The position numbers are program-made. Shown piece by piece: positions 1 to 64,000 of a stretch of 64,000 nucleotides of DNA (the first letter of the stretch is position 1; each line of letters begins with the position of its first letter). The stretch comes from Convolutriloba macropyga (Eukaryota). The stretch is from the NCBI RefSeq assembly GCF_964194025.1, contig NC_134468.1, positions 12,028,001 through 12,092,000 of the forward strand, written 5' to 3'.

Positions 1-3000
1 CATAAGTTTGATGACAAAAAAAGAGCATTTCAGACAAGCAGCTTGATGTCGGTGTGTCTAAGGACTATCCGGGAAGATTTCAATCTGGTGGACAGTGAGA
101 TGGTTGAACGGCACATGGCAGAAGTATCGTCAGCATCTTCATTTAGTGACCCTATGCCAGCTCAGTTATTCAAAAGTTTCTGCAGATCTAACATCGTCGA
201 TATTGTTGATATGATAAACAGTGCGCTCACGAGTGGGATATTTCCGAGTATCTTGAAGGAAGGTATTACTAAGCCTCTCCTGAAGCCAGGTGAAGACAAA
301 GAGACTCCTGTTAGCTATCGCCCTGTAACGAATCTGAAATGGTAAGGAAAACTGCCAGAACGTATTGCACACAATTAACGACACATCTTGACGCAATTGA
401 CAAATGGCCCGTCATGCAATCAGCATACCGTCAAAAGTCACTCTACAGAAACTAGCCTGATTTGGTTCTCAAACGTGATATGCAAAATGACATCCAGAAA
501 CAAATCCTTGTTGATGGTGTCGCTTAACCTCAGCAGCGCTTTTGATACAGTTCAGCACCACCTCATGACTGACATCTTGAAGCCTTTTGGTCTCCGCGGC
601 GCTGTTGCAAACTTTTTTGATACGTATCTTCGAGACAGAACAGTGAAAGTCCTAGTTGCAAATGTTCTAGCAGATTCTATCGAGCAACCAACCGGTGTTC
701 CGCAAGGGAGTATTCTAGGGCCTTTGCTCTTCCTACTTAATCTTAATTCTCTATTTCAAGTACTTGACGCGATTGCGTGCCTCTATCATTTTTGCGCTGA
801 CGATTCTCAATTGTTATTTGAAATACATGAAGGACGATTATAATCGAAATGTAAAGAATTAGTTAAACGAGTTGAAGTGTTTTGACTCGTTGAAGTTGAA
901 AATCAACAAAGACAAAACTGAGCTAATAGTTTTCAAGCCCAACACTTTTGACAGGAACATCCCAAAAAAAGCATTGTTCGGAGAACTTGTCATCGAATAA
1001 CCTTCAATCAGAATACTGGGTTTTCTTTTCGACAATTCCTTGATCAAGATCAACGTCATTTATTTGTCAGATGCTACATTTCATCGCGACTTGACTATTG
1101 TAATGCATTATATTATTACTGCCTACCTGAAAAAAGACTGAAAAAGCTTCAGAAAGTCCAGAATGCCGCAGTACGCTTTATTTTTGGAAAACCTCGTTCA
1201 ACAAGAACAACACAGCTGATGAAAGAGCTGCATTAAATACCAATTTAACAACGAATTCAGTCTAAAGTAGGCTGTCTTATGCACAAGGTGAAGAACAAAA
1301 ATGCTCCCGCGTATCTGTAAAGTCTGTTCCGACTTAATGTTAACTCTGCTAAGCCAAATAGGCGTGAAATGTTTCGGGTGCCTACTGGTAGAACAAATTT
1401 CCAGAAAGCTGCTTTCAAGAACAGTGGATGCCGCTTCAGGAATGACCTGCTTAGAAAAGAAGTAAATTACAAAGTGTTCAAGCAGATGCTAAAAACGATG
1501 TTTTGTGCCAAGCCTACTGATTCTTATTGATGCACTTTTGAGATCAGAAAAAGTGCTAAAGCCTCCATCATCATCATCATCTAACGATTCGGGTGCTCAA
1601 TTCTACCACTTTTGCCTGCTTCAGTGGCAGGGTCACTGTACAGGTTTTGCTACCCGACATTATTGAAGTAAAATAAATCAAACCAAACCAGACAAATTTT
1701 CATCAAACTAGAGTCGTAAACTCATGCCAATTGAGTAGAAAATTGTCAGATAAGAGCGCCGTTTACATCAGGCAAAACTCAACAAGTCAAGCAGAAATCT
1801 GTCTAGCAAAAACTTGCTTCAAACTTGGTTCGAGAGCTATTAGATATTGCTCGAGAATAATTAGCAACAGCTGGTAAAACAAACTCAAAAAAGCCTTTGA
1901 CAATAAAACAAGAACTGATTACGTTCCATTTTTTTTCTTAAAAATGAACTAAGCAAAAATATATAACTAGAAGATTGAGGAAGCGCAGAATTTCCATGGT
2001 TCACTTCTTTTAGCATCGTTGGCATTGAAATAGTCCTTGAAAAACGAATTGAGTTGTAAAATGACAGCCCGCTTTTCTTACGAAAAGCAAAATTTTGACG
2101 TATAGAAATCTAATAAATTTTGGTAACGTTAATCATTCTTCGTTTTCAGACTTTCATGAAGTTATTACAAATTGTGTAAAGTAATGGGGCTAAACAGCTG
2201 ATCATCAATTGTTTTCTCTGATCATAAATTAGTTGGCTGTGGTCAATTGATTTTCAATCGAATAGATTATGCTCAATTTAACAGCAAATAGCATCAAATT
2301 TGAGCATCAGACAAGGCGTGTATACGCAAAAATTAAATGCTGTTAAACGACCGCCCAATAAAATCGGTTTAATTTAGTTAAAGAGCAGTTTGAATGTAAA
2401 ACGACAACCATGAAACAAGATAGCGTAAAAACGTAAACTTGATGCAGCATATGATAACAATCAGGATATTACTGCTAATGCTCTGCGGCTCATACAAAGA
2501 ACTTCACCGACTAACGTCGGAAAAATTGCCCTCAAACGCCTATTGGGAGCTCTAATCTATAGAAGCCTGCTTCAATGGGGAGTAACTAAAATCGCTAAAG
2601 AGGCTTCAAATGACGTCATAGGATATTATATACCATTATAACCACTCGAAAAAATTAAAGTGTAAAAATGACACCAATTTTGGCACTTTGAGCTCAGCTG
2701 CTTAAATTTGCGAATGAGAGAGAAACTTAGATCACGCAAAACGAAAAAGTCAAGGGCGCAAAAGTCACTCGAAAAGTCAACTCGGTCAAGCAAAAATTTT
2801 GCAATAAAAAACCAGCACGTTTACAATAATTGCTTCTCAAACTTCGTTGGAGAGCAATTAAAAACAGTTGGAAAAATGGATCTGTTCCGTTTGCCCCCCC
2901 CCCGCCCCCGTTTCGTATGCTCCCCCAGTTACAGAGCACGTGTCATTACATGGTAACTCGCTATGTAAAAAAGGCACGTGGGTCTGGGGGTTACAAATAA

Positions 3001-63000: not shown

Positions 63001-64000
63001 AACAGTTCTATAATAGGCAGCTAGTAGTAGCGGGAGAATTAGGGCACTTGGGATTGTTTTACGACCTGACCCAACTAACAGTACAACTTGGCTGCAAACT
63101 CAGAAAACAATTTAGTTCAAAAAGGAACAAACCATGCAATCAAATGATAGATAGATATTTCAGCTAGTCATTATATTGCCCTGCCGTACACTGTGATTTA
63201 ATCACTTAGCCAGAAAAACTGTTATTTTTCTTAATAAAAACTGTTCACATTCTTCTCGGTTAAAAATTTTAGCAGAAACCAAAAATTAGAGCGCATCCGT
63301 TTTCCTCTCTTTGCTAAAAAGGAATAAACGTCGGTCGAAATTGCTTGAAAAAATAAAACTCACAGTCACAAACAAATATTCCGTATTTGAATTTCATTGG
63401 GCCCGATCTTTGGTCTCGATGAGAAACTAAGAAACAAATTTTATGGCAAATAAGAGAAAAAGATTCTACAAGCATATAACTTCCAGCATTTCAGAAATGT
63501 TTTCTGAAAAAATCGAAGTAAAGATGAAACAAACAAAACCTACAGTGCAGGACACATTGCTCGGGTTTGACGACTTTGGATATCAGTCGCGTTAGGCAAT
63601 AGCGTCTGGTACTAGTAATATAAGTGAAAGCAGTAGCGTTGCCAAATTAATGCATTAATTAACATTGAACAATGAAACTTAAACGGAGCGACGCGGATAA
63701 AATGCTCTCAAACAACAGCGGGGCAATGAAATTAGAGGTGGTGTAGCTTAGAAGTGTTTCACCGACCCCACAGGGGGTTTGAACCAAGGCCTCCAGAACA
63801 TCATCTGAACCACTAAACTACAATAGCTTTGATTCCTATTCGCTCACAACCGCTTTTATATTAACAACAATCTTTATGGAACGAGAGCTCTTATATCACT
63901 GAAAAATGAAGAACGGAAGCGTAAAAAATCACTTTAAAAAGTCAAAGAACGAACTGGGGGCTCACCACTGTAAAATAAAGAATTGGGGGCTCACCACTGT

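Follow-up and report, generated by a model that had tools for sequence, protein, structure and literature searches.

Gene-collinear, one-way orientation of HINEs across a 64-kb window of the Convolutriloba macropyga genome and a possible role of T-rich targets

The features that define HINEs, the non-autonomous Helentrons, have been given for mites, mosquitoes and Drosophila in the part of PMC4067079 considered here, and for the Cg_HINEs of the Pacific oyster in sections 7 and 9 of PMC7492417. In these accounts, HINEs and DINE-1 elements carry subterminal inverted repeats (subTIRs), an inverted repeat by the 5' subTIR followed by a GTC-rich stretch, satellite-like arrays in the centre and a palindrome at the 3' end; they enter T-rich or TT targets, with T at both boundaries and no clear target duplication, and form mosaic families that share modules. 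Elements alike in all these respects, here sorted into families A, B and C, occur in a single stretch of 64,000 bases from Convolutriloba macropyga (assembly GCF_964194025.1, contig NC_134468.1, positions 12,028,001 to 12,092,000), which we call the window; it contains no N. The likeness is one of described features. Furthermore, Cg_HINEs occur in both orientations in the oyster assembly (PMC7492417), and the sections of PMC4067079 and PMC7492417 considered here report no bias relative to the gene strand, whereas all HINE copies in the window face one way and are collinear with its two recognisable genes, HSCB and a homologue of NCoR/SMRT, both on the minus strand. Full-text searches, with subscription journals and supplements outside their scope, brought up no earlier report of a gene-collinear orientation of HINEs. 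How eukaryotic rolling-circle transposases find a single-stranded DNA (ssDNA) target is an open question, which a near-absolute, gene-collinear HINE orientation, if true, would make testable by counting alone.

The one-way orientation of the HINE copies is confirmed as real and lies far beyond chance. A strand-symmetric self-BLAST of the window (word 11, E<=1e-5) returned 77 direct pairs and 1 inverted pair, 45316-45378 against 45639-45701 (90-92%), which belongs to a palindromic element that is not a HINE. With more sensitive settings (word 7, +1/-1, E<=1e-3), 175 direct pairs (22,587 nt) stood against 6 inverted ones (629 nt), each of which is either a local palindrome or a match of 44-63 nt, namely the self-palindromes 45196-45551, 15191-15248 and 11921-11965, the 45316/45701 pair, a 46-nt match between 31391 and 39143, and a palindrome common to two copies of family B. 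When 24 repeat clusters were flipped at random in silico and passed through the same pipeline (20 trials), 22-39 inverted pairs were obtained, corresponding to 29-51% of all pairs with a mean of 43%, compared with the observed 1 of 78. Full-length profiles of five repeat families (E<1e-3) matched the plus strand 26, 9, 11, 8 and 4 times, 58 matches altogether, and the minus strand 0 times; as these profiles were built from copies in the window, the plus-strand matches arise partly by construction, and it is the empty minus strand that is informative. The initial annotation had counted about 30 copies or ends, all in one orientation and none of them inverted, and self-BLAST, profiles and flip control bear this out, as does the sensitive search for copies in the opposite orientation.

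The element ends lead to the same result. Profiles of the ends (nhmmer) placed all of them on the plus strand: for family A, 13 strong and 2 weak 3' ends and 17 strong and 6 weak 5' ends; for family B, 5 and 1 weak 3' ends and 6 and 3 weak 5' ends; for family C, 3 3' ends together with 3 and 1 weak 5' ends. The minus-strand rows of these searches all have E>=0.009 and mostly span 15-45 nt; most of them reflect a subterminal repeat that matches, as expected, its complement at the opposite end of the element, and the remaining few, located elsewhere, have E>=1.7. A family-agnostic motif, consisting of an A-rich pentamer followed by a perfect hairpin, was present 10 times on the plus and 0 times on the minus strand in its strict form. 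Its relaxed form gave 26 plus- and 6 minus-strand hits, a count inflated by base composition because the motif is A-rich, and none of the 6 resembles an element end. The case that would escape all of these tests is a single-copy family in the opposite orientation that lacks the shared 3' signature.

In arriving at the 24 repeat clusters, which comprise 15.9 kb in total, copies duplicated in tandem at 33.4-34.4 kb, 5.9-7.9 kb and 42.1-42.6 kb were merged. Comparison of the 48 flanking segments, each 150 nt long, revealed a single weak match of 40 nt; since the flanks are unrelated, the clusters represent independent sites, and an origin of the co-orientation by segmental duplication is ruled out on the same grounds. 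That 24 of 24 clusters face the same direction has a two-sided binomial P of ~1.2e-7 and puts the 95% lower bound of the true co-orientation rate at 0.88. It could be argued that orientation is random genome-wide and that the window, being only one, is an outlier; with this P value for 24 independent clusters and a flip control that never fell below 29% inverted pairs, such an ascertainment effect is extremely improbable. By HINE convention, the end that carries the 3' stem-loop is the 3' end, and hence every copy is assigned to the minus strand, the strand of HSCB and the NCoR homologue. Matches to Pfam families and to PDB entry 4a69_C place both genes on that strand, so that the co-orientation with them claimed in the initial annotation stands. 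Its description of a hairpin end on the left of the plus strand is correct for the 3' stem-loop, but at the right end, too, the 5' subTIR pairs with its inverted repeat into a hairpin.

The anatomy of the repeats supports their classification as HINEs, i.e. putative non-autonomous Helentrons, of at least three families (A, B and C) with a common 3' terminal signature, and the elements are new members of this known kind. In family A, as exemplified on the minus strand by the copy 36212-36612, a T run is followed by a 15-nt 5' subTIR with its inverted repeat, a GTC-rich stretch and a variable centre, and the 3' side consists of a complementary subterminal repeat, a 5-bp G+C stem-loop, a short conserved tail and a T run. 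Over 15 nt, the 5' subTIR 36593-36607 and the 3' subTIR beside 36237 are reverse complements of each other. Families B and C differ from A in sequence and follow the same plan with the same 3' tail, their subTIRs measuring 9-10 nt in B and 13 nt in C compared with 15 nt in A; for HINEs in general a length of about 11-13 nt is given. The 5' hairpins fold as DNA at -8.6 (A), -8.2 (C) and -9.2 kcal/mol (B), a stability reached by 0 of 200 shuffles, and the folding energies of the 3' stem-loops range from -3.2 to -6.9 kcal/mol (z -2.1 to -2.6). The 3' stems of all three families are 5-6 bp long and G+C-rich, and between two subfamilies of B the stem is kept through a change on both sides. Modules have been shuffled between families, as in the element 28067-28631, which joins a C-type 3' end to an A-type 5' end.

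In some copies the centre holds an array of ~170-nt period (10096-11418 and 43622-44624) or a ~158-nt pair (6642-6954), and others have no array. The ~170-nt arrays sit in HINEs of different families, their monomers are 60-70% identical to each other, and they are too diverged for Tandem Repeats Finder at default settings. SubTIRs, a 5' inverted repeat, a 3' stem-loop, insertion into T runs and central repeats, five features by which HINEs are recognised, are all present, and so is a sixth, the lack of coding capacity: no Pfam family was detected in the open reading frames (ORFs) overlapping the elements (150 ORFs at E<=1e-3, 143 at E<=1e-4). HINEs are also expected to share their termini with an autonomous Helentron of the same genome; ORF and Pfam scans found no autonomous Helentron ORF (Rep, helicase or endonuclease) within the window. 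Altogether, anatomy, folds and two pairs of filled and empty sites uphold the HINE identity proposed in the initial annotation.

Other classes of element were rejected. Canonical Helitrons start with 5' TC, end with 3' CTRR preceded by a hairpin ~11 nt before the 3' end, and insert between A and T. The elements in the window start, on their own strand, with an AAT- or ACA-type subTIR after a T run and end with the stem-loop, the short conserved tail and a T run; because of these starts and ends, and since both mapped targets lie inside T runs, they are not canonical Helitrons. A short interspersed element (SINE) derived from tRNA, 7SL or 5S RNA, which would show a Pol III-type head, an A-rich or LINE-like tail and target-site duplications, was rejected as well, with 0 Rfam families, 0 tRNA-like genes and no duplications at the two mapped sites. 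A cut-and-paste miniature inverted-repeat transposable element has terminal inverted repeats at its two tips and a target duplication of fixed length; it was rejected because the repeats in the window are subterminal, the two ends differ in that just one of them bears the additional 3' stem-loop, and no fixed duplication was found.

Two insertions could be mapped by comparing filled with empty sites. The C element 6592-7146 splits a run of 11 A (plus strand) that is intact in the B copy 15118-15656, and the composite of B and C at 6096-7199 splits an AAA (plus strand) that is intact at 7694 in the neighbouring unit of a tandem repeat, which we call E. Both of the two mapped targets are T runs on the element strand (11-T and TTT) and show no clear target duplication, one of 2-3 nt being still possible in a homopolymer target. 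Since the target of a HINE is a T run on the element's own strand, its orientation is set by whichever strand bears the T runs. Nested and abutting copies share one direction: C lies in a T run of B, B lies in A at 29375, and B stands beside A at 36613. The B::C composite is present three times, at 6096-7199, at 42724-45083 and as a 5' fragment at 22717-22815, and seems to have been mobilised as a unit.

The threefold occurrence of this composite speaks for local transposition or amplification that retains the strand, whereby copies would spawn neighbours on the same strand and the orientation domain would be unrelated to genes. The B copies at 6096 and 15118, which are 93-94% identical and 9 kb apart, would fit such a process, as would the 88% identity between 9286 and 11581 and the 93% identity of C 5' ends. 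Nevertheless, the presence of three or more families, with pairs ranging between 60% and 94% in identity, indicates many separate events, and the cluster flanks are unrelated, so that we consider local spreading an improbable cause of the pattern.

The window itself is asymmetric between its strands. It contains 23,236 A, 17,767 T, 11,922 C and 11,075 G, and the AT skew of the plus strand is above zero in 29 of 32 2-kb bins; beyond HSCB, in 58.5-64 kb, it amounts to 0.08-0.25 in 10 of 11 500-nt bins. A plus strand that is A-rich over most of the window, the part beyond HSCB included, had been noted in the initial annotation and is thereby verified. Across HSCB and its promoter (55501-58500), the AT skew is about zero (-0.06 to 0.03, 500-nt bins) and becomes higher again from 58.5 kb; the A-rich domain is thus broken exactly at the compact HSCB gene. 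On the plus strand, AT skew and GC skew are 0.109 and -0.045 in non-repeat DNA and 0.211 and -0.011 in repeats, and decayed HINE sequence alone therefore does not explain the GC component. An excess of T over A and of G over C on the sense strand is the pattern of transcription-associated asymmetry, and we infer that the skew of the non-repeat DNA derives from transcription of the minus strand.

We favour the explanation, to which we give close to an even chance, that integration itself sets HINE orientation, by way of a strand-specific T-rich target located on the T-rich sense strand, and that nesting reinforces it. HINEs would integrate into T-rich runs as read on their own sense strand; as such runs and contexts lie mostly on the minus strand here, the direction of insertion would be set, and every inserted copy would supply more T runs on the same strand, into or next to which later copies would nest in the same direction. 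We infer that the availability of the target strand is the main cause of the one-way pattern. If true, this plain reading would mean a sense bias, opposite to the familiar antisense bias of retroelements. Of the causes weighed here, the initial annotation had named T-run targets, integration into the displaced non-template strand and the purging of inverted pairs; replication, polyadenylation signals, feedback through nesting and local hopping are additional to it.

Two described systems show how a target can impose direction. Telomere-associated Helitrons of Paramecium have an absolute orientation bias that results from a strand-specific telomeric target, according to the part of PMC13085455 considered here. 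They resemble the elements in the window in that a strand-specific target fixes the orientation of a rolling-circle element and nested insertions build blocks of the same polarity; they differ in that their target is the C-rich telomeric strand at chromosome ends, whereas the targets in the window are T-rich runs in and between genes, and the strand bias of the target is statistical and not absolute. Barley Helitrons have an asymmetric target with AAA 8 bp downstream of the A-T site (PMC5738225), and as such a target is not symmetric, local strand composition can bias orientation here as there. In contrast to the elements in the window, they are canonical Helitrons of a plant, and the part of PMC5738225 considered here reports no bias relative to the gene strand.

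The composition around the insertions is consistent with a T-rich target on the sense strand. The flanks of the 24 clusters contain A at 0.42-0.44 and T at 0.24-0.26, compared with 0.359 and 0.285 in the background outside clusters. Runs of at least 5 in non-repeat DNA number 392 for A and 160 for T on the plus strand, and runs of at least 6 inside repeats number 106 and 12. The share of A runs on the plus strand, over lengths 2-9, is 56-73% in non-repeat DNA and 61-100% inside repeats. Counts of A-rich versus T-rich segments predict a co-orientation of 0.66-0.90, varying with width and threshold. A composition model fitted to the flanks yields 0.76, 0.88 and 0.95 for contexts of +-10, 20 and 30 nt, with P(24/24) of 0.0013, 0.043 and 0.27, respectively, so that the two wider contexts do not strongly reject 24 of 24; a T-rich target can therefore account for 24 of 24 only if the recognised context is wide, about +-20-30 nt.

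Several points weigh against this explanation. Plain T-run availability over lengths 2-9 predicts just the 56-73% found for non-repeat DNA, which leaves P(24/24) at ~5e-4 or less. The proposal of T-run targets on a T-rich sense strand in the initial annotation thus has direct support from the two filled/empty pairs and the A-rich flanks, but plain run counts are too low for 24 of 24 unless a wide T-rich context is the target. One of the two mapped targets is only TTT, which argues against a requirement for long runs. The wide-context model (0.88-0.95) is circular, having been fitted to the same 24 sites, and for this reason targeting is inseparable from a regional skew of other cause. Finally, one window was examined, and it was singled out because of this very pattern.

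The weakness of plain T-run availability is one of the observations in favour of integration coupled to transcription, where the HUH nuclease of Helentrons would cut ssDNA in the form of the displaced non-template strand of germline-expressed genes and leave the element collinear with the gene. Indeed, each of the 24 clusters faces the same way as the two recognised genes. Cleavage by HUH nucleases is confined to ssDNA, and the part of PMC4778049 considered here names lagging-strand replication and transcription-driven melting as possible, untested sources of ssDNA for Helraiser. However, the same orientation prevails at 58.5-64 kb (4 ends or fragments) and at 1.7-13 kb (7 of 24 clusters), stretches in which neither strand yielded a gene, and the evidence comes from a single locus. 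We thus consider transcription coupling unlikely.

Orientation is uniform over two genes and their spacers with no switch at gene borders, which would suit integration coupled to replication, with the lagging-strand template as a single-stranded T-rich target and the whole window in one replication-direction domain. The model for such a process is bacterial: the orientation of IS200/IS605 elements such as IS608 follows the direction of replication. Like HINEs, these elements depend on an HUH nuclease that needs a single-stranded target, so that a strand bias is predicted, but for the elements in the window the link to replication is an analogy. Origins might be expected at promoters, yet orientation does not flip although the window contains two of them, and we know of no eukaryotic precedent for an orientation coupled to replication. 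The IS608 precedent is cited in the discussion of PMC4778049, as far as that section is considered here. On balance, replication coupling has a low probability.

Transcription and replication may also be joined in one broader claim, that HINE or Helentron integration in this animal is strand-specific to a process exposing ssDNA, be it the non-template strand or the lagging-strand template, and that at least 88% of insertions genome-wide are collinear with genes or with fork direction, beyond what T-run availability accounts for. This we regard as doubtful; if true, HINE orientation would preserve, like a fossil, which strand was exposed as ssDNA in the germline, and would provide the first counterpart in eukaryotes to the strand bias of IS608.

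Selection after random insertion would act through the content of the elements. Of the polyadenylation hexamers AATAAA and ATTAAA in the repeats, 60 are on the plus strand and 17 on the minus strand, and antisense copies would hence carry more such signals into transcripts. Copies transcribed on the A-rich strand could be lost owing to premature polyadenylation, or copies could be lost that pair with inverted neighbours as double-stranded RNA, and most clusters indeed lie in or beside transcribed DNA. Long interspersed elements and long-terminal-repeat elements in introns are likewise oriented non-randomly with respect to the host gene, with a partial antisense bias that is ascribed to selection. 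These are retroelements, whereas in the window a DNA element shows a sense bias that is complete within the sample, and the 24 of 24 exceed such selection-driven intron biases. Moreover, orientation is no different in the stretches that yielded no gene (1.7-13 kb and 58.5-64 kb), the U runs contributed by sense copies could serve as cryptic acceptor tracts, as known from Alu exonisation, and copies just 60-80% identical would pair poorly. Selection is thus unlikely to have produced the pattern.

For annotation, the one-way fill of HINEs adds strand skew, U-rich intron sequence and satellite-like arrays within genes. The individual copies, all of which lie on the minus strand, are as follows. 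Complete copies of family A were delimited with end profiles at 2498-2865, where the plus strand shows the 3' stem-loop on the left and the 5' subTIR and inverted repeat on the right, and with profiles at 12315-12705, 15967-16394, 30654-31166, 49503-49936 and 54896-55493. Profiles also identified further copies of A at 8627-9440, with central repeat material, at 9872-11735, with the ~170-bp monomer array 10096-11418, and at 37565-37852, with a decayed 5' end. At 25827-26616, an A copy (25827-26150) is accompanied by A-like internal sequence (26300-26616), and at 33115-34378 an A copy (33115-33554) is followed by a tandem duplication of its 5' half to 34051 and a wider repeat to about 34378. 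A-like sequence at 41666-42011 includes a short A element (41867-42011). The pair 36212-37099, in which A (36212-36612) abuts B (36614-37099), was recognised by profiles and folds.

Family B is represented by profile matches at 15118-15656, a complete copy whose 11-A run near 15590-15605 is the empty site for the C insertion in the filled/empty comparison, at 17836-18306, and at 29289-29881, where B (29375-29881) lies inside the 5' part of an A element (29289-29375). In the composite 6096-7199, which was resolved by filled/empty comparisons and end profiles, B (6096-6591 and 7147-7199) carries C (6592-7146) in its internal A run. The second composite, 42724-45083 (profiles), has a C part (43389-45030) with a ~170-bp monomer array, and the 5' fragment 22717-22815 (end profiles) reads C 5' end and then B 5' end. 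The chimeric copy 28067-28631 with its C-type 3' and A-type 5' ends was found with profiles. Tandem repeat E, seen in the self-comparison at 5887-7898 and assigned no strand, has the units 5887-6095 plus 7199-7394 and 7424-7898, the first being interrupted by the B::C composite and the second representing the empty site.

Fragments and decayed ends complete the set. An A 5'-end fragment lies at 1775-1846 (nhmmer), and profiles revealed a B 5'-end fragment (20529-20592) together with an A 5'-end fragment (20728-20884) at 20529-20884, an A-like internal fragment at 51017-51111, a decayed B-type 3' end (59422-59462) with a C-like 5' part (60276-60532) at 59422-60532, and a 5' part of A at 62199-62604 with a G-rich 121-bp tandem duplication on its left, located within 62168-62409. 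Weak matches point to a decayed A-type 3' end at 14566-14641 (E=6.3e-4) and a decayed A-type 3' subTIR at 63694-63727 (E=3.6e-3). The motif search yielded a candidate 3' end of a fourth family at 52627-52660, a single copy with an A-rich pentamer and then an 8-bp stem, for which no partner end was found in the window.

HSCB, at 55791-57014 on the minus strand, comprises two ORF-bearing exons identified from Pfam matches and translations. Its DnaJ part lies within 56358-56792 in the ORF 56319-57014 (Pfam DnaJ, E=1.7e-7) and its HSCB_C part within 55794-56105 in the ORF 55791-56105 (Pfam HSCB_C, E=1.4e-13); the best Atlas cluster is HscB. The complete A copy 54896-55493 lies ~300 nt downstream of the HSCB stop codon (55794) and may be situated in the 3' untranslated region. 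Window positions 56322-56969 have a counterpart at 97% identity in the public protein entry P0005 (217 aa). This entry corresponds to an uninterrupted ORF through the first HSCB exon and upstream sequence rather than to the spliced protein, and has the look of prokaryote-style ORF calling applied to a closely related assembly.

The NCoR/SMRT homologue is confirmed on the minus strand for 13553-22337 by a PDB match and translations. Its exon 22074-22337 aligns with the deacetylase-activating domain (DAD) of human NCoR2 (PDB 4a69_C, E=4e-5; 1xc5_A, E=0.019), over half of the aligned positions being different, and the DAD/SANT1 region continues in an exon at about 20914-21033, in which the SANT1 domain ends. 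Further on come two long ORFs rich in Ser, Thr and Gln, at 16579-17748 and 13553-14137. The exons were searched singly, and the split SANT exons, missed by Pfam, were recognised only by eye and by PDB search. The transcription unit is confirmed for 13.5-22.4 kb, and more 5' exons probably reach to or past 46 kb. We tentatively assign 45751-46104 as a coiled-coil exon of this gene, a PDB search with which gave matches to His-rich tags only. A family A HINE in sense orientation has its 5' end ~30 nt past the donor site of the SANT1 exon (20884-20914), on its downstream side, so an insertion this near a splice site has persisted.

Beyond the HINEs, the only coding repeat found is a decayed fragment of a non-LTR retrotransposon at 1-1560 with reverse-transcriptase ORFs (RVT_1, E=1.2e-12 for 379-843), which is on the plus strand, opposite to the HINEs and both genes, and seems to end in a short CAT repeat near 1565-1582. 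No further protein family was detected in 150 minus-strand ORFs of at least 40 aa (17.9-48.0 kb, E<=1e-3) or in 143 further ORFs (E<=1e-4). As to the hint in the initial annotation that the whole window might be transcribed on the minus strand, the ORF and Pfam scans found no plus-strand gene in the window, but no minus-strand gene in 57.1-64 kb either, and the window contains 0 Rfam families at gathering score and 0 tRNA-like genes.

The palindromic non-HINE element 45196-45701, source of the sole genuine inverted repeat in the window, lies between the second B::C composite and the tentative coiled-coil exon and includes a 24-25-nt tandem repeat at 45542-45619. Another tandem repeat, a perfect one of 24 nt at 31253-31340, adjoins a family A HINE, probably within an intron, and makes the peptide of the minus-strand ORF 31073-31489 repetitive. 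Homopolymer tracts are present as well: ~23 C start at 3497 (3497-3519), a further long C/G tract occupies 2891-2908, and ~14 G lie within a family A copy at 36268-36281, G tracts being located in the internal part of family A copies.

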